Source: Candidatus Doudnabacteria bacterium | GTDB lineage: Bacteria > Patescibacteriota > JAQUNI01 | DNA: 64,000 bases | NCBI GenBank assembly: GCA_041644975.1 | Contig: JBAZQX010000006.1 | Coordinates: forward strand, 9,761-73,760 | Direction of reading: 5' to 3' | In this document: positions 7,326 through 59,051 of the stretch, piece by piece | How positions within the stretch are numbered: the first letter of the stretch is position 1 | How the letters are laid out: each line of letters starts with the position of its first letter | Position numbers and translations under genes: made by a program | The notes under the pieces: model-generated | The model's input: only the letters and a program-made list of their open reading frames with translations | Databases searched by the model: none | Told to the model about the DNA's origin: nothing

Positions 7326-7483
7326 CGTCATTGCGAGGAGTCCCGAGCTTGTCGAGGGACGACGAAGCAATCTCATCGAGCGTAATATCTAGTTTTATGA
7401 GATTGCCTGCCCGCCATCGCTTCGCTTCAGGCGAGGCGGGCGGGCTTCGTCGTCGGGCTTCTGCCCTCCTCCTCGCAATGACG
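7326..7483. mobile_element. MITE-like nested palindrome, family B (TIR cgtcattgcgagg / cctcgcaatgacg)
   Basis: ~158-bp imperfect palindrome containing the core gcctgcccgccatcgcttcgcttcaggcgaggcgggcggg; related copies at 22700, 39184, 58864 and the core alone at 23021, 32914, 38286, 38936, 51862. Confidence 0.7.
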
Positions 7484-12002: not shown

Positions 12003-12105
12003 AGAATAATATTCTTATTATTGGTTTTCCCTTCCTTTGGCTCAAGACTTATCCACAGGATTAGCACTCTCACTCCCTAACTGCTAATTCCATTATATAC
12101 CCCTA

Positions 12106-12132
12106 TTAGCACTTGTCAAGTAGGAGTGCTAA
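12106..12132. promoter_or_regulatory. CIRCE operator (HrcA binding site)
   Basis: ttagcactt-N9-gagtgctaa, near-perfect match to TTAGCACTC-N9-GAGTGCTAA, ~100 bp upstream of hrcA; a second half-site ttagcactc lies at 12061-12069. Confidence 0.8.
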
Positions 12133-12289
12133 CCCCCCACCTTTTAGAAAAAGGTGGGGGTAAAAATTAAAAGTGAAAAGTTAGAAATTGACCTTCCCCC
12201 TGACAAGGGGGAATTGAAGGGGGTTTTAAAAACTTATGACAAAACCGCTACGATATGCTACTCTTAAAGAAAGAAATATGATTTAAAAT

Positions 12290-22699: not shown

Positions 22700-22765
22700 C
22701 GTCATTGCGAGGAGCCCCCCACCTTTTACAAAAGGTGGGGGGCAGCGAAGCAATCTCCTCGCATG
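22700..22765. mobile_element. family B/G palindromic repeat overlapping the annotated mraZ 5' end
   Basis: cgtcattgcgaggagccccccaccttttacaaaaggtggggggcagcgaagcaatctcctcgcatg. Confidence 0.65.
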
Positions 22766-22837
22766 AAAGTCTATTTAATTAAATTTTTATATTTTTATTC
22801 TTAAGTGGGTTATCCACCTTTGACCTGACTTCTCCCC

Positions 22838-22868
22838 ACTTTTGTCCACAGTTCCCCACAACAAAGTT
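22838..22868 (-). promoter_or_regulatory. three GTGG(G/A) direct repeats at 10-bp spacing (MraZ-box-like)
   Basis: Minus-strand gtggggaact gtggacaaaa gtgggga located ~220 bp upstream of mraZ, matching the known architecture of MraZ operators. Confidence 0.4.
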
Positions 22869-22977
22869 ATTATACACCATTTCAATGTTCCCGCCAACCA
22901 TTGCAAACCACTCTTCCCTTTGGCTTATTTAAAGGGAAATATAAGATAATCTTAAACTTTATCCACAGTTTTTAAAA

Positions 22978-23102
22978 CCCTCCCCCTTACCAAGGGGGAG
23001 ATGGCCTGCCCGCAACGCCTCGCAAGCTCGGCTTGCGTGGCGGGCGGGAGGGGGTCTATTCTCTCCCTCCCCTCCCAACCTCCCCTCGGGCAGGGGAGGA
23101 CA
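22978..23102. repeat. left arm of an ~85-bp inverted repeat pair (contains an inserted family B core)
   Basis: ctcccccttaccaagggggag ... agggggtctattctctccctcccctcccaacctcccctcgggcaggggagga is the reverse complement of 25387-25466. Confidence 0.6.
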
Positions 23103-25280: not shown

Positions 25281-25386
25281 ACCTTCAAATCAGGCCATTA
25301 CCCTCTTTCTGGCAGGGACGGAAAGATTAAAATTAAGGGCAAATATTAATCGCTCCAAGCGACCAAACTGTGGCTAATCTTTCCTT

Positions 25387-25466
25387 CCCTGCCCGAGGGG
25401 AGGTTGGGAGGGGAGGGAGCTTCAATAGATAGACCCCCTCCACCTCCCCCTTGGTAAGGGGGAGAA
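25387..25466. repeat. right arm of the ~85-bp inverted repeat pair
   Basis: ccctgcccgaggggaggttgggaggggagggag ... ctcccccttggtaagggggag. Confidence 0.6.
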
Positions 25467-32913: not shown

Positions 32914-32991
32914 CCTGCCCGCCATCGCTTCGCCCGCCCGCAACGCCTTGCGGCTAGCATGGCGGGCGCGGCTTCAGGCGAGGCGGGCGGG
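32914..32991. repeat. family B core repeat
   Basis: ctgcccgccatcgcttcgcccgcccgcaacgccttgcggctagcatggcgggcgcggcttcaggcgaggcgggcggg. Confidence 0.6.
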
Positions 32992-33700: not shown

Positions 33701-33960
33701 GATCATCGCTTCGCGAGATCTCGCGAAGCGAGACAGTGCAAAATTTTAAAATGAATTACGTTTTTTGGGAATTCACCATTTATGGTTTTAAAACCGAGGT
33801 TTTCATAGGGTTTTGCCACGCCTTTGCCAGCAGTCACTAAAAAGGCGTGAAAAGGCTAAAGTATACCACGGTGAATACAGTGGCCTAAATTCCCAAAATC
33901 ATTTTGACATTTTAAACTGTCATTTTGATTTTTGCATTTTACATTTTACATTTCTATTAT
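33701..33960. mobile_element. ~260-bp composite repeat element K (copy 2)
   Basis: Collinear with 18511-18748: same GC palindrome, ttgggaattcaccatttatggttt, aattcccaa and terminal cattttacattttacattt. Confidence 0.55.
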
Positions 33961-38285: not shown

Positions 38286-38370
38286 TCCCCGCCCGCCTCG
38301 CACTCCCGCCGCGCCCGCCATGCAGCTAAGAGCGTTGCGGGCGGGCGAAGCTTGTGAGCGGGCAGGCACC
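38286..38370. repeat. family B core repeat (variant)
   Basis: ccgcccgcctcgcactcccgccgcgcccgccatgcagctaagagcgttgcgggcgggcgaagcttgtgagcgggcagg; the small ORFs 38265-38522 and 38270-38452 are read from this repeat. Confidence 0.6.
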
Positions 38371-38509
38371 TCCCCCTTCCGCCCAAGGCGGACACAGTGG
38401 AAGGGGGAGTGAAAAATCCCTTGACTTTTATCTTTATAACTTCTAAAATCAATGTGCTCTGAATATCCTTGGATCTTTACACTCATACTGAATTGGAAGG
38501 AGAGAAAAA

Positions 38510-38935: not shown

Positions 38936-38975
38936 CCCGCCCGCCATCGCTTCGCTTCAGGCGAGGCGGGCGGGC
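38936..38975. repeat. family B core repeat
   Basis: ccccgcccgccatcgcttcgcttcaggcgaggcgggcggg. Confidence 0.65.
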
Positions 38976-51034: not shown

Positions 51035-51108
51035 TGGCAGGCCCTGAGGGAGTCGAACCCCCGACTGTGGTTTTGGAGACCACCGTTTTACCGCTAAACT
51101 AAGGACCC
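51035..51108 (-). tRNA. tRNA-Trp (anticodon CCA)
   Basis: GGTCTCCAAAACC anticodon arm (loop CTCCAAA), G73, encoded CCA. Confidence 0.85.
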
Positions 51109-51115
51109 ATTGCAA

Positions 51116-51361
51116 TTATAAGATTTTTAATCTTTTCAATAATCCGTGATGTGCAGAGCCAAATTGTTTGAGTTTATGTTCGCGTTCTTTGGCAAGTTCC
51201 TCGCTAGAATAAGCTTCATAATAAACTAATTTTAAATTGAACATCTTTTTTGTTGTGAATACCTTCTGATTCTTGTGCTCGCTTATTCTACGCCGTAAAT
51301 CCCTGGAATATCCAATGTATATTTTTTTATTGCCATCTTTCAAAAGGTAAACATAGAACAT
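51116..51361 (-). CDS. GIY-YIG nuclease-domain protein (short, YhbQ-like)
   Basis: 81 aa: YVYLLKDGNKKIYIGYSRDLRRRISEH matches GIY-X10-YIG with conserved Arg and Glu. Confidence 0.75.
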   Translation of the reverse strand: MFYVYLLKDGNKKIYIGYSRDLRRRISEHKNQKVFTTKKMFNLKLVYYEAYSSEELAKEREHKLKQFGSAHHGLLKRLKIL

Positions 51362-51375
51362 ATTTTTACATTTGT

Positions 51376-51478
51376 TTTGGACCCAGCCCTTCGCGATGGG
51401 CTGGGTTCGCGAAGGGCTGGGTGGAGACCGTCGTTATACCACTTACCCAGCCTCTCGCGAGAGGCTGGGTTAACTACA
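51376..51478. repeat. family D palindromic repeats (ccagcccttcgcgaagggctgg)
   Basis: Related copy at 54395-54460. Confidence 0.55.
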
Positions 51479-51499
51479 CCCCCGAAAAACAATTTTTAA

Positions 51500-51917: not shown

Positions 51918-51930
51918 ATAGAAGAGACTG

Positions 51931-52223
51931 AGCCGATGACCGGATTTGAACCGGTGACCTACTCCTTCACTTATACCTCTTTTTTCCTTTTAAAAAAAGC
52001 ACTTATAAGAGGGTTAGACTGTATCTTAAGCATATCTTAAAAAAGACTTAGCTCTTCTTGGCAGTCGTTCGGGCGTTGTCTGAAAAAATTAAAATAACGC
52101 CACGGTCTGAACCTTGTGCCAGGTCTTTAACCGTTATTCGAAAGCACTATAGGGATTTCTCCCAAAGTGGGCAGGTTTAAAGCGAACTACCATGGAGTTG
52201 CTCTACCACTGAGCTACATCGGC
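51931..52223 (-). tRNA. tRNA-Thr (anticodon GGU) interrupted by a 221-nt insertion in the anticodon loop
   Basis: 5' exon 52189-52223 (GCCGATG TA GCTC AGTGGTA GAGC A ACTCC ATGGT) and 3' exon 51931-51967 (AA GGAGT AGGTC ACCGG TTCAAAT CCGGT CATCGGC T) reconstitute a canonical cloverleaf with loop ATGGTAA. Confidence 0.65.
51968..52188 (-). ncRNA. putative group I intron (221 nt) between tRNA positions 36 and 37
   Basis: Follows U36 and ends in G; contains GGGAGAAATCCC GNRA-capped hairpin, P7-like GACTG/CAGTC pairing and an S-like element aagatacagtctaa (compare AAGAUAUAGUCC). Confidence 0.4.
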
Positions 52224-52633
52224 AACGAATTAAAATTGATTAAGGACTCTAGACACCATCGATTTATTATTTTCTTTAATTTGGTATTGCAAACATAAAT
52301 ACTTAAGGTGCCATATTGACTTTTATTCTTATAACTGCCCCCCTTCCCTTTTCTAATCTGAACATTTTTTAATTGATCTCTGCTTATACCTGTATTCTTC
52401 CGCCAAAAATCAATGGCCTTATTTACATCAACATCATCAAAAATATTCAATTCTGCTTTGATTTTTGATTCCCTAACGCCGCAAATTTTTCGCAAAAACA
52501 TCAAAAATGTGTTTAATATTTTAGGGTCAGTATTTGCTAGTTTAATGTGGCCTTTATCTCTTTTATCCCCCTCTCCGAGGTATAAACCAATTCCTAAATA
52601 AAACAAGCTTAATTCTGTATCGCCCTTTACCAA
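52214..52633 (-). CDS. LAGLIDADG-type homing-endonuclease-like protein (single motif)
   Basis: LSLFYLGIGLYLGEGDK resembles the LAGLIDADG motif; 139 aa with I-CreI-like spacing; TTG start as listed (start uncertain); 3' end overlaps the tRNA-Thr 5' end by 10 nt. Confidence 0.45.
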   Translation of the reverse strand: MVKGDTELSLFYLGIGLYLGEGDKRDKGHIKLANTDPKILNTFLMFLRKICGVRESKIKAELNIFDDVDVNKAIDFWRKNTGISRDQLKNVQIRKGKGGSYKNKSQYGTLSIYVCNTKLKKIINRWCLESLINFNSLPM

Positions 52634-52945
52634 TCGAACTTTAAAGGGATCGCCGTGAATATTACGTTTAACATAAGTAGCTTCACTTTTGTGATCTTCT
52701 TGGAATCTGATATTTTTGCATCCAATAAACTACTGTCTTATACCCCCAACCATTATCTTTGGCTATTTCCATCATTGATAGACCCTTTTTATATAATTTT
52801 TCCAATCTTTGTCTTTGTATCATACTATCAACTTAAGCTCTCCATGTAAAACGGAATAAGGAATTAGGAATAAATAAAAAACAAATATGGAACTACCAAT
52901 TGATATTCCTAATTCATTATTCCCAATTCCTGATTCCTAATATTG

Positions 52946-53028: not shown

Positions 53029-53119
53029 AAACTCAATTGTTCTATTGTTCAATCGCTCTATTGCTAAAATACAACAATCAAACAATGAAACAATTGAACA
53101 ATAGAACAATAAAGTTGTG

Positions 53120-53157
53120 AGCCGACTGTCGGATTTGAACCGACGACCTACTGTTTA
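53120..53157 (-). repeat. duplicated 3' half of tRNA-Thr(UGU) (anticodon loop to 3' end)
   Basis: gagccgactgtcggatttgaaccgacgacctactgtttac versus the genuine 3' half gagccagcggtcggatttgaaccgacgacctactgtttac; only the acceptor arm differs. Confidence 0.6.
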
Positions 53158-53174
53158 CCCCCCACCTTTCCGCC
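53158..53174. repeat. 17-nt arm ccccccacctttccgcc (family G), complementary to 53247-53263
   Basis: Together the two arms enclose the complete tRNA-Thr(UGU) gene. Confidence 0.6.
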
Positions 53175-53177
53175 AAG

Positions 53178-53249
53178 AGCCAGCGGTCGGATTTGAACCG
53201 ACGACCTACTGTTTACAAAACAGTTGCTCTGCCACTGAGCTACGCTGGC
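53178..53249 (-). tRNA. tRNA-Thr (anticodon UGU)
   Basis: GCCAGCG TA GCTC AGTGGCA GAGC A ACTGT TTTGTAA ACAGT AGGTC GTCGG TTCAAAT CCGAC CGCTGGC T. Confidence 0.85.
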
Positions 53250-53287
53250 GGAAAGGTGGGGGGCTCTACCACTCAGGCTACCTCGGC
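53247..53287 (-). repeat. second 17-nt arm ggcggaaaggtgggggg plus a degenerate tRNA 5'-half fragment
   Basis: gctctaccactcaggctacctcggc resembles the 5' half of tRNA-Thr(GGU) (gctctaccactgagctacatcggc at 52201-52223). Confidence 0.5.
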
Positions 53288-53381: not shown

Positions 53382-54335
53382 TTACTGATTGCCTTTAATT
53401 TTCCTCTGTTTCTCTAAAAGCTCAAGATATTGATAATTACCCGGATATGCTTTCACCAGTTCTTCATAAGTTCTCACTGTCTTATCAATATTGTTCTGAT
53501 TGCGATACATCTTGCCTAGTTCTAAGTAAAAATACTCTTTGGCGCGGTTATTTTTAATCGCCCGGCGATAAATTTTTTCCGCCTCCTTCATCTTGCCTTC
53601 TCCGGTATAAGCCAACCCCAATTTTCTGTAAATATCAACTTCATCCGCTCTCCTTTTCAAGGCTTCTCGAAAAGAAGATTCGGCATCGCGGAAATTTCCC
53701 TGCTCAAAATAAAGAGTGCCCAATATTTTGTAAACTTGGGCATTTTTAGGACTCTTGCGAATGACGGAAAAACAAATCTTTTCTGCCGCTTTGAAGTGTT
53801 TTATTTTAACAGCATTTTGAGCATCGGTCAACAACTCTTCCAAACTTAATTCTTTTCGCTCTTCCCGCTCTAAAGGCGCGGAAGGAATTTCCACTTTGAC
53901 CTCTCTGGCTTTGAACCCTTGGGACATAAATGGTTTCGGCCTTCTTAACCCCCGCGCTTCTTGCTCGTCATCTGCCCGCATCAATGTTTCTTCCCGCTGA
54001 ATTTTTTCATTTTGACGCGGCATCTTTTGCCTATTTTCCCTTCTCGCCTCAATTAGTCCCTTGATTCCACCTCCCAAGGCTTTCAGTCCCCTCCCGCATA
54101 AAACCAAAATCTTTTCCCCCGCTCTTCCGCCCTTCCGAGCAATGGATAAAATAAAATACCCTATACGAGGCAGACCCGCTTTTAAAACCGCTAAAATTGT
54201 TTTTCTATTCTTTCTTGACTCTGATACCGCATCTATTTTTAATTCTCGGACCTCGGGCAACTTCCGACCTAAAATCACAATAATACCCGCCAGCGCTAAA
54301 ACAATTACGAATTGAGGAATTATCTCGTAAGTCAT
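53382..54335 (-). CDS. TPR-repeat protein with N-terminal membrane anchor
   Basis: N-terminal TM; C-terminal tetratricopeptide-like repeats (YFYLELGKMYRNQNN, AESSFREALKRRADEV ...). Confidence 0.6.
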   Translation of the reverse strand: MTYEIIPQFVIVLALAGIIVILGRKLPEVRELKIDAVSESRKNRKTILAVLKAGLPRIGYFILSIARKGGRAGEKILVLCGRGLKALGGGIKGLIEARRENRQKMPRQNEKIQREETLMRADDEQEARGLRRPKPFMSQGFKAREVKVEIPSAPLEREERKELSLEELLTDAQNAVKIKHFKAAEKICFSVIRKSPKNAQVYKILGTLYFEQGNFRDAESSFREALKRRADEVDIYRKLGLAYTGEGKMKEAEKIYRRAIKNNRAKEYFYLELGKMYRNQNNIDKTVRTYEELVKAYPGNYQYLELLEKQRKIKGNQ

Positions 54336-54497
54336 TATTGTATAATGGTTTAAAGTGAAGGTCCTTAAAGAATGGAATTTGGATTTTAATTTTGCCGCCG
54401 CGCCCGCTTTTTGGAGCCCTTCTCCAGCCCCTCGCGAGGGGCTGGATTCGCGAAGAAGGGCTCCATTTCACCCTAGATAAACCTCTCTTAGGGGCGG

Positions 54498-57809: not shown

Positions 57810-58919
57810 ATGAAGCAAGAAATTAAAAAAATTCAAAAGGAATATGAAACGATCTTGAGCGCGCTTTCCGAGCCTGCTGCTATTTCTGATCCAGCGAAGC
57901 GAGCTTCCCTTAGTAAAAGAGGCGCTAGGCTTCAAACCATACTCGCGGAGTATGAAAATTACAAAAAAATTCAGAAAGAGATTAGAGAAACTGGAACCTT
58001 GCTTGTTGATCCCGAACTTAAAAAGGAAGCGGAGCAAGAATTGCAAAATTTAAAAAGTAAAGAGACGCAGATCAGGCAGAGTTTGGAGGAAAAATTAAAT
58101 CCCCCAAATCCCAATGACGTCAAAGATGTAATTATGGAAATCCGCGCCGGCGCCGGCGGCGATGAAGCCGGACTTTTCGCCGCCGATCTTTTTCGGATGT
58201 ATTCACGTTATGCTGAACAACGCGGATGGGAGATAAATCTTCTTAATTCCAGCCGCACAGGCATCGGCGGCTTTAAAGAGATTATCTTTGAGGTGAACGG
58301 CAGCGATGTTTTCAGCCACTTAAAATACGAAAGCGGAGTGCATCGCGTCCAACGCATACCGGAAACCGAAAAGTCGGGGCGTATCCACACCTCCACGGCT
58401 TCCGTCGCGGTTCTGCCTCAAGCCGAGGAAGTGGAAATCAAAATCAAACCGGAAAATTTACGCATTGACGTTTACCGTTCTTCCGGACCCGGCGGCCAAA
58501 GCGTAAACACCACCGATTCCGCTGTCCGCATCACCCACCTGCCCACCGGCTTGGTTGTTTCCTGCCAAGATCAAAAATCACAACTTAAAAACAAAGAAAA
58601 AGCGCTTCAGGTTCTCCGCTCTCGCTTGCTCGTTCAAAGGCAAGAAGAAGAAGCAAAAGCGCAAGGCAAGGCAAGACGTGCTCAAATTGGCGGGGCTAAA
58701 CGCGCTGAAAAAATTCGCACCTATAATTTTCCCCAAGACCGCGTCACAGATCACCGGATCAAAAAAAGTTGGCACGGTATAGAAAAAATTTTAAATGGGG
58801 AATTGGATGATATTGTTAAAACGACAAAAAAAAGTATTGAAACTAAGGGCATAAATATAATTCGTCGTTGCGAGGAGGCCGCCCCAAAGCGGCCGACGAA
58901 GCCCGCCCGCCTCGCCTGA
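57810..58919 (+). CDS. prfA: peptide chain release factor 1
   Basis: GGQ motif (SGPGGQSVNTTDSAVRITHLPTG) and RF1-type domains; the last ~18 codons run into a family B element, so the C-terminus is uncertain. Confidence 0.9.
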   Translation: MKQEIKKIQKEYETILSALSEPAAISDPAKRASLSKRGARLQTILAEYENYKKIQKEIRETGTLLVDPELKKEAEQELQNLKSKETQIRQSLEEKLNPPNPNDVKDVIMEIRAGAGGDEAGLFAADLFRMYSRYAEQRGWEINLLNSSRTGIGGFKEIIFEVNGSDVFSHLKYESGVHRVQRIPETEKSGRIHTSTASVAVLPQAEEVEIKIKPENLRIDVYRSSGPGGQSVNTTDSAVRITHLPTGLVVSCQDQKSQLKNKEKALQVLRSRLLVQRQEEEAKAQGKARRAQIGGAKRAEKIRTYNFPQDRVTDHRIKKSWHGIEKILNGELDDIVKTTKKSIETKGINIIRRCEEAAPKRPTKPARLA

Positions 58920-59051
58920 AGCGAAGCGATGGCGGGCAGGCAATCTCATAAAATTAGATAATTTTGGGATGACAAGTTTTTTCTTTTTTAGGAGATTGCC
59001 GCATCGCTTCGGCTCCGTTTCTACTCGCGCCTCGCTCCTCGCAATGACGAC
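58864..59051. mobile_element. family B MITE-like element spanning the prfA-prmC junction
   Basis: cgtcgttgcgaggagg ... gcccgcccgcctcgcctgaagcgaagcgatggcgggcagg ... cctcgcaatgacgacg. Confidence 0.6.

Follow-up and report, generated by a model that had tools for sequence, protein, structure and literature searches.

The tRNA-Thr(UGU) Locus

In a 64,000-nucleotide (nt) stretch of DNA from Candidatus Doudnabacteria bacterium (assembly GCA_041644975.1, contig JBAZQX010000006.1, positions 9,761 to 73,760; hereafter the window, numbered from its first letter), a complete tRNA-Thr(UGU) gene lies between two incomplete parts of another tRNA gene. Read along the minus strand, which carries all of these features, the order is a TPR protein gene (54335..53382), a tRNA 5′ fragment (53264..53287; GCCGAGGTAGCCTGAGTGGTAGAG), an arm (53246..53263; CCCCCCACCTTTCCGCCA), the complete tRNA-Thr(UGU), a complementary arm (53158..53175; TGGCGGAAAGGTGGGGGG) and a tRNA 3′ half (53119..53157; TAAACAGTAGGTCGTCGGTTCAAATCCGACAGTCGGCTC). 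We call the two arms and the tRNA between them the cassette, its tRNA the inner tRNA, and the flanking parts the outer gene. The 5′ fragment comprises an acceptor strand and D arm and is devoid of nucleotides 26–35; the 3′ half runs from anticodon nucleotide 36 to the 3′ end.

The inner tRNA is recognized as intact by ARAGORN (53177–53249) and by Rfam, whose tRNA model matches at 53178–53249 over positions 1–71 of 71 with 75.1 bits, in agreement with an earlier reading made from the letters alone (the sequence-only reading). That reading had also described perfectly complementary arms of 17 nt and a 38-nt duplicate of the tRNA 3′ half with differences confined to the acceptor arm. The complementarity and the confinement hold, while both lengths needed correction. 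The inverted repeat spans 18 nt (53158–53175 and 53246–53263; 18/18 or 100% complementary) with 70 nt separating its arms, and the direct repeat spans 40 nt (53119–53158 and 53177–53216; 37/40 identical), all three mismatches falling in the acceptor strand. The final 4 nt of the 5′ arm double as the first 4 nt of the inner tRNA. The whole insert of arm, tRNA and arm measures ∼107 nt, of which 72–73 nt are tRNA.

The 5′ fragment was previously likened to tRNA-Thr(GGU). The likeness is real; the origin is different, because in relatives of the locus the fragment is continued by AACTGTTTTG, the anticodon stem and loop of tRNA-Thr(UGU). By this sequence comparison, the fragment is the 5′ half of a tRNA-Thr(UGU) gene, and the two outer parts are read as remnants of one resident tRNA-Thr(UGU) gene.

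Little else was detected at the locus. No open reading frame (ORF) of at least 50 amino acids (aa) lies wholly inside the insert, Rfam at a permissive threshold (E up to 5) returned no intron and no other family, and a promoter and terminator scan of the locus gave no match. A Hamming-distance scan of the window found no additional tRNA halves. The 17-mer of the arm, with up to three mismatches, occurs three times in the window against 0.24 expected.

Relatives of the Locus

Syntenic loci were gathered from NCBI, JGI, ENA and Logan assemblies via homologues of the adjacent TPR protein, which were used instead of the window protein itself as an exact-sequence lookup of the latter gave no match. 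The TPR protein of the window is 100% identical to an NCBI protein of Candidatus Doudnabacteria. The TPR-alignment scans, one each, yielded two loci from GTDB genomes and seven from JGI metagenomes, and the sample is limited thereby. A tRNA-Thr(UGU) gene lies 3′ of the TPR gene in every locus, and nesting is present in NCBI, JGI, ENA and Logan assemblies alike, that is, in independent assemblies.

The TPR proteins group the loci into four clades. Clade I comprises the window, L001, L011 and L012 (88–92% TPR identity within the clade), and clade II, 66% identical to clade I, comprises L002–L007, L015 and L017. Clade III consists of L009/L010/L018/L020 and L019/L022, two subgroups with 77–78% TPR identity to each other, and clade IV of L008 and L014, which are 92% identical. 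L023 and L024 belong to no clade. Clades I, II and III contain nested loci, and clade IV the remnant of one. Several short-read contigs stop at the nest, either inside the inner tRNA (L001, 5205; L010, 2954) or in the outer 5′ half (L006, 6538). Repeated tRNA halves break short-read assemblies, and nested loci are therefore probably under-sampled and under-counted.

Insertion Point and Foreign Origin of the Inner tRNA

In L001, L011, L002 and L009/L020, the whole outer 5′ half is present through ..AACTGTTTTG and stops at anticodon nucleotide 35; the outer 3′ half starts with TAAA (nucleotide 36) in every nested locus. The break falls between TTTTG and TAAA in L011, L002–7, L009 and L020; in L014 only the right-hand junction exists, before TAAA. 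L001 has six extra nt between TTTTG and the arm. The window has lost TTTTG by deletion, with 18 nt missing relative to L001.

An empty counterpart of this site is found in L023, whose tRNA-Thr(UGU) gene is uninterrupted (GCCGCCC..GCAATGGTTTTG^TAAACCAGAGG..GGGCGGCTC). The joined outer halves of L020 differ from it by a single nt in the T loop, and the 108-nt insert of L020 sits exactly between G35 and T36 with no duplication of the target. On the sequence evidence of these junctions, the comparison shows that the cassette split a resident tRNA-Thr(UGU) gene between anticodon nucleotides 35 and 36.

Inner and outer tRNA are clearly distinct genes in L009/L020. The outer one has the acceptor GCCGCCC/GGGCGGC and the anticodon stem ATGGT/ACCAG, the inner one GCCTGAG/CTCAGGC and ACTGT/ACAGT, and the two are 71% identical in their 5′ halves and 82% in their 3′ halves. 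Because both acceptor and anticodon stems differ, the inner tRNA is foreign to these loci and a local duplication is ruled out there.

Cassette Types and Their Exchange

Three cassette types can be told apart. Type A (L011, L009 and L020) has the 5′ arm CCTGCCCGCCATCGCCTWA, the 3′ arm CAGGCGTAGGCAGGCGGG and the inner acceptor 5′ strand GCCTGAG; type B (window and L001) has CCCCCCACCTTTCC, CTTGGCGGAAAGGTGGGGGG and GCCAGCG; type C (the L002 group) has CCTGCCCGCATTCGCCAAA, CATGCTTTGGTGGGCGGG and GCCCGCG. The distribution of these types does not follow that of the surrounding DNA. L011 and L020 have almost the same cassette (36/37 identical positions in the arms, 70/72 in the tRNA) in different surroundings, with 120-nt flanks that are 47–48% identical and TPR proteins that are 58% identical. 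The window and L011, on the other hand, share the upstream flank (92%) and the outer 3′ half (38/38 identical), but their arms are only 53–62% identical. The same cassette in different flanks, different cassettes in the same flanks and the filled and empty pair of L020 and L023 together show, as far as sequence comparison reaches, that the cassette has a history of its own and that, as a unit, it has been exchanged between genomes and swapped at this site.

The un-nested genes tell a similar story. L019 and L009 have TPR proteins that are 78% identical, yet the tRNA-Thr(UGU) gene of L019 and the outer gene of L009 are quite different. Un-nested tRNA-Thr(UGU) genes depart from the host tree, as repeated replacement would yield.

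Decay of the Outer Gene

The outer genes are preserved to different degrees. With the cassette excised in silico, joining the outer halves gives a valid tRNA-Thr(UGU) in L020 and L009, and also in L011 once an extra hairpin is excised as well. No valid tRNA results from the window or from L002. In the window, the absence of nucleotides 26–35 is accompanied by mismatches at pairs 6–67 and 7–66, and ARAGORN finds nothing after excision. In L002, the acceptor strands GCCGACG and CTCAGGC form only 4/7 pairs and the anticodon stem contains an indel. Its outer 3′ half thereby carries the acceptor strand of a type A inner tRNA, whereas the outer 5′ half starts with GCCGACG; these mixed halves would fit two successive invasions followed by a deletion.

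Clade IV holds the most reduced states. In L014, a GCCTGAG-type tRNA is followed only by a remnant of the 3′ arm and a degenerate 3′ half, and L008 has a clean GCCTGAG-type tRNA alone, with no outer remnant. Ordered from L020 through the window and L002 to L014 and L008, the compared sequences show the outer halves as what appear to be pseudogene remnants in decay.

Hairpin Repeats That Supply the Arms

The arms belong to families of GC-rich hairpin repeats that occur without a tRNA elsewhere in the window. In the family CCYGCCCGCCATCGCTTCGCTTCAGGCGAGGCGGGCGGG, the two type A arms enclose a 6-nt loop instead of the tRNA of the cassette, and the family is present in four copies in the 64 kb: 38936..38974 (plus strand; CCCGCCCGCCATCGCTTCGCTTCAGGCGAGGCGGGCGGG), 7406–7444 (plus), 58902–58940 (minus) and 32914–32991 (plus), the last of which holds another hairpin in its loop. 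The type B hairpin has two copies, one at 12133..12160 (CCCCCCACCTTTTAGAAAAAGGTGGGGG) with TAA on either side and one at 22714..22743 inside a larger palindrome (GCGAGGAG...CTCCTCGC). The sequence-only reading had placed the palindrome family of the window arms at 12130 and 22715. Hairpins are indeed found there (12133 and 22715), although they have only the outer 12–13 nt of the stem (CCCCCCACCTTT) in common with the type B arms. An 11-mer with up to one mismatch occurs eight times in the window against 1.8 expected, a count reached by 0/100 shuffles. Chance explains neither this count nor that of the 17-mer. The tRNA-bearing cassette, in turn, was seen as a single copy per genome fragment. 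Whether the arms of relatives resemble a repeat family had been named as the point that separates element activity from an old, stable pseudo-tRNA remnant; tested in this way, the relatives’ arms belong to dispersed hairpin families, which favours element activity.

Hairpins of this kind also vary among relatives. The spacer between the PSP1 and TPR genes has no hairpin in L012, one in L001, where GAAA is duplicated, and a hairpin within a hairpin in the window (54412–54465). Extra hairpins are also present in the outer 5′ half of both L001 and L011, and they are not the same in the two loci. The target duplications of solo hairpins are variable and 3–4 nt long (TAA, GAAA, TCCA). At the cassette, the comparison of L023 with L020 reveals no target-site duplication. 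Because hairpins sit in the loops of other hairpins and in tRNA remnants, we infer that insertion may be aimed at the tips of DNA stem-loops, of which the anticodon loop would be one.

The intergenic DNA of the window contains many GC-rich perfect or near-perfect hairpins of several families, commonly with a TCGCGA centre and often nested in one another’s loops or inside a larger repeat (GTCATTGCGAGG...GAAGCAATCTC). GC-rich hairpin regions lie at 7406–7444, 22706–23099, 25311–25464, 32914–32991, 33706–33731, 38288–38409, 38936–38974, 54412–54465 and 58902–58940. Directly upstream of the hairpin at 12133, the region 12061–12131 has two inverted repeats, TTAGCACTC-N9-AACTGCTAA and TTAGCACTT-N9-GAGTGCTAA, which are CIRCE-like, CIRCE being the HrcA operator.

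A Proposed Self-Rescuing tRNA Cassette and Its Alternatives

We interpret the locus as a tRNA gene nested in a tRNA gene by way of a palindrome-bounded, self-rescuing mobile tRNA cassette, and assign this reading a probability of about 0.8. The cassette would consist of the two arms of a GC-rich hairpin repeat in which a complete tRNA-Thr(UGU) replaces the apical loop. Its point of entry would be the anticodon-hairpin tip of a resident tRNA-Thr(UGU) gene, where it would part nucleotide 35 from nucleotide 36 and leave no target-site duplication. The insertion would kill the resident gene and be tolerated since the cassette supplies a working copy of the same tRNA. The inner tRNA, presumed from its sequence to be that working copy, would then serve as the functional gene. 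Presumably the broken outer gene lends it a promoter, and its transcript would mature through RNase P and 3′ processing. With the help of the arm helix, the inner tRNA may fold independently of the nearly identical outer halves. These halves would gather further hairpin insertions and deletions and finally vanish, leaving the incoming tRNA as the only copy, and cassettes would move among genomes and displace one another at this site.

The sequence-only reading had seen in the duplicated 3′ half the footprint of an integrase attL/attR, which would have been left by a phage, plasmid or island integrated in the tRNA gene. A 40-nt direct repeat of the tRNA 3′ half does exist, and anticodon loops are known integration sites of tyrosine integrases. 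The repeats, however, start only 58 nt apart, the second copy being separated from the inner tRNA by just 1 nt and the 18-nt arm; the ∼107-nt insert has no ORF, a separate 5′ half is left behind that is not a product of att recombination, and the junctions have no shared or duplicated core (L023/L020). A search for the corresponding attP on mobile elements was equally negative: neither the arms nor the nested arrangement was found on phages, plasmids or viral contigs. Exact scans of IMG/VR viral contigs with the type A arm, the type B arm and the left junction, which are blind to diverged copies, gave only chance matches of 16–17 nt with no T loop or matching second arm nearby, and longer junction and solo-hairpin patterns gave 0 matches. 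In blastn searches of INPHARED phages and PLSDB plasmids, only ordinary tRNA-Thr genes were hit, with no arms and no nesting. The outer T arm and acceptor recur in four viral contigs, all of them GC-rich prophages in which the match is a tRNA-Thr(CGU) att site with no relation to the nested locus. We regard an integrase footprint as extremely improbable. We also consider it very unlikely that the locus arose by local rearrangement, in which an ancestral tandem or partly duplicated tRNA-Thr was later struck by palindromic repeats and no mobile cassette existed. Such a duplication predicts the ∼92% identity that the window and L011 show between the 3′ halves of the inner tRNA and the outer gene, and hairpin repeats do enter tRNA remnants. 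Against it, the two tRNAs of L009/L020 are clearly different genes, the outer gene of L020 corresponds to the single gene of L023, and the same cassette sits in unrelated flanks. Moreover, the same phosphodiester bounds the outer halves in all lineages, which one insertion explains and two independent deletions do not, and no tandem complete tRNA-Thr(UGU) intermediates were seen among 12 aligned loci. The earlier suggestion of a palindromic element in an ancestral tandem tRNA is borne out with regard to the insertion; the ancestor, however, was a single gene, and the tRNA arrived together with the palindrome (L009/L020, L023).

Two further alternatives concern the RNA. The locus might be a functional interrupted gene, in which a working tRNA is made from the outer halves: the inner tRNA would be freed by RNase P and RNase Z, and the arm helix would hold the halves together for trimming and ligation. 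In favour of this, arm pairing is common to the three cassette types, group I introns are proven to occupy position 35/36 of Patescibacteria tRNAs (PMC13011429), and the outer tRNA of L009/L020 is flawless and departs from the inner one by compensatory changes in its acceptor and anticodon stems. The last point is accounted for by the uninterrupted gene of L023, which explains the perfect outer tRNA of L020 as the result of a recent insertion. The outer gene is broken in the window and in L002, and its 5′ half carries extra hairpins in L001 and L011. In addition, a group I core would not fit into the insert, which also has no Rfam intron match, and the junction forms a 4 × 3 internal loop beside a long helix and not a bulge-helix-bulge motif. 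We therefore judge a functional interrupted gene unlikely, at odds of the order of one in twenty. There is a somewhat better, still minor chance that the arms are primarily an RNA device, either insulating the fold of the inner pre-tRNA or providing a double-strand-specific processing site comparable to the leader-trailer stems that flank rRNAs, a role compatible with the cassette interpretation. The sequence-only reading had likewise thought of the helix as an unusual tRNA-processing substrate. All three arm types pair despite their different sequences (folds with paired arms at z = −4.9 to −9.6; −65.9 kcal/mol and z = −9.6 for the window cassette), and matched changes distinguish types A and C, where TT to AA stands against G,A to T,T and type C has a C-G pair at the place of a C·A mismatch in type A. 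The predicted folds of types A and C stack the arm helix on an intact cloverleaf. Against such a role, the 18-bp helix of the window is predicted to compete against 4 bp of the acceptor stem. Furthermore, the same hairpins occur without tRNA at many intergenic sites, which makes pairing a property of the repeat family, and DNA-level correction of quasi-palindromes would yield the same matched changes.

Several points weigh against the self-rescuing cassette itself. The sample amounts to ∼10 independent loci, all from metagenomes of one lineage, and the tRNA-Thr(UGU) gene content is known for the 64-kb window only. Mobility is deduced from comparisons, as the Thr cassette has neither a transposase nor an integrase nor a nuclease linked to it (the Pfam scan covered five ORFs, one of them in L002 and the other four close to the locus in the window), and the function of the inner tRNA is judged from its sequence. 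The still perfect outer tRNA of L009/L020 is compatible there with a functional interrupted gene. As the cassette has no target duplication and some solo hairpins do, the two may be inserted by different mechanisms. Finally, the near-identity of type A cassettes in distant hosts may in principle reflect strong selection instead of transfer, an account that is hard to square with the unrelated arms of the window.

The tRNA-Trp Unit and Neighbouring Genes

A second candidate tRNA replacement structure lies nearby on the minus strand. It begins with a tRNA-Trp 5′ half (51483..51422) that has a GC hairpin in its D loop (51469..51446; TAA duplicated), followed right after the anticodon by a second hairpin (51421..51382; TCCA duplicated), TCCAAAAC, an 81-aa GIY-YIG ORF (51361..51116; Pfam E = 1.4e-13) and a complete, annotated tRNA-Trp (51108..51035) that is quite unlike the 5′ half. 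No 3′ half follows the complete tRNA-Trp in the window. Homologues of the GIY-YIG protein (74–76% identical) are found in the same layout in L191/L192 and L193/L194, with different neighbouring genes. The outer tRNA-Trp 5′ half of L193 equals the inner tRNA of L191, which suggests serial tRNA-Trp replacement. In sequence terms, the unit appears to be a parallel case to the Thr cassette. The 81-aa protein was considered as a classical homing endonuclease and rejected: its closest solved relatives are UPF0213 proteins, and it is a stand-alone catalytic domain of this type with no DNA-binding domain.

The tRNA-Thr(GGU) gene (51930–52223, minus strand) contains a 221-nt intervening sequence after nucleotide 36, which default ARAGORN and Rfam missed and the ARAGORN intron option found; L023 has a 225-nt counterpart. 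Divergent group I introns have been reported in tRNA-Thr of Patescibacteria (PMC13011429). The intervening sequence matches them; a real divergent group I intron lies next door to the nested locus.

Directly at the 5′ end of tRNA-Thr(GGU) ends a conserved ORF of ∼201 aa (window 52214–52823, minus strand; L002 11564–12169; L019 from 2902). It has an N-terminal helix-turn-helix region and the motif LGIGLYLGEGDK. L002 and L019 have it intact, and an extra A near 52690 shifts its reading frame in the window. In L002, it is preceded by a stretch resembling a tRNA 5′ half (GCCAAAGTAGCTCTAGATGGTTAGAGC). The ORF has no Pfam match, and its assignment as a LAGLIDADG endonuclease was dropped as unsupported by Pfam, NCBIfam and PDB sequence searches; only its helix-turn-helix region resembles phage proteins annotated as HNH endonucleases. 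Next to the nested locus, the spacer between the outer tRNA-Thr 3′ half and tRNA-Tyr (53030–53116) is an AT-rich imperfect hairpin with 34-nt arms (82% complementary), made of CAATTGAACAAT-like units, and comparable spacers exist in L011 and L019.

Implications

The Thr and Trp structures might represent an undescribed class of selfish elements, namely minimal self-rescuing tRNA cassettes that home into the anticodon-hairpin tip of the cognate tRNA gene and are rendered harmless by a full substitute gene instead of splicing. The Thr form would be hairpin-bounded and the Trp form would combine a hairpin with a small GIY-YIG protein. Such cassettes would drive continual horizontal tRNA replacement in the Candidate Phyla Radiation and leave halves with complementary GC-rich tails as a by-product. 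We offer this generalization tentatively, at somewhat less than even odds.

For the Thr locus, the cassette would be a concrete case, documented in sequence, of how very small genomes undergo horizontal replacement of an essential single-copy tRNA gene; the insertion would be survivable only because the cargo is the same tRNA. Self-splicing and restoration of the 3′ end are two ways in which an essential RNA gene can tolerate a selfish insert, and carrying a spare copy would be a third. The full-text literature, in which not all journals are covered, yielded no bacterial tRNA nested in a cognate tRNA gene and no tRNA-carrying palindromic repeats; accordingly, we found no earlier description of this putative route of tRNA gene turnover. 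The product of the insertion, a 5′ half with a GC-rich arm and a complementary arm with a 3′ half separated by a break in the anticodon loop, has the architecture of archaeal split tRNA genes. The loci might hence serve as natural intermediates for testing how tRNA genes come to be in pieces, and, if the tentative generalization above is true, the by-product halves with their complementary GC-rich tails would be raw material for split or intron-containing tRNA genes. Annotation tools ignore or misread the tRNA-like fragments at such loci, a further source of probable under-counting.

Comparison With Known Systems

Integrative elements that target tRNA genes are kilobases long, encode an integrase, replace only the 3′ part of the tRNA and have a duplicated core at both junctions. 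The Thr cassette shares with them the tRNA gene as target, the anticodon-loop site and the principle that the incoming DNA keeps a working tRNA. It differs in its size of ∼107 nt, in having no ORF and no duplicated core, in bringing a whole tRNA and in leaving both halves of the target.

Homing elements pass through a cycle of invasion, degeneration, loss and re-invasion, and free-standing GIY-YIG genes are found in phage T4, for instance SegB of the tRNA cluster. The nested loci have several features in common with this group: a conserved gene that is either filled or empty at one precise site, conflicting phylogenies of element and host, and a decay series. The neighbouring tRNA-Trp unit additionally carries a GIY-YIG ORF, a candidate nuclease gene; the Thr cassette has no endonuclease gene.

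Group I introns occur in tRNA genes of Patescibacteria, position 35/36 included (PMC13011429). They agree with the cassette in phylum, in the kind of host gene, in position and in being tolerated because tRNA function is kept. In contrast to these self-splicing introns, the Thr cassette has no ribozyme core and carries a substitute gene, while the outer gene decays.

The archaeon Nanoarchaeum equitans has split tRNA genes whose parts are distant from one another in the genome and whose products are joined by the splicing endonuclease at a bulge-helix-bulge motif. The layout of a 5′ half with a GC-rich stretch and a complementary GC-rich stretch with a 3′ half, broken in the anticodon loop, is common to both systems. 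The loci studied here differ in that they hold bacterial remnants that are mostly unable to form a tRNA and in that the bulge-helix-bulge motif is replaced by an internal loop of 4 nt by 3 nt between anticodon stem and arm helix.

The arms, finally, are similar to REPIN/REP sequences, MITE-like repeats, Rickettsia palindromic elements and mitochondrial GC clusters, which are short, non-coding, multi-copy hairpin elements of intergenic regions and sometimes of genes. Among the traits of MITE/REPIN-type elements, the cassette has hairpin-forming terminal inverted repeats (18/18), and its arm sequences have dispersed copies; a target-site duplication of fixed length is absent from the cassette. 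We know of no palindromic repeat that carries a complete tRNA gene or sits in the anticodon loop of the matching tRNA. By analogy, the cassette seems to act like a homing or integrating element that spares the function of its target, and to resemble a REPIN/MITE-type repeat in its build.

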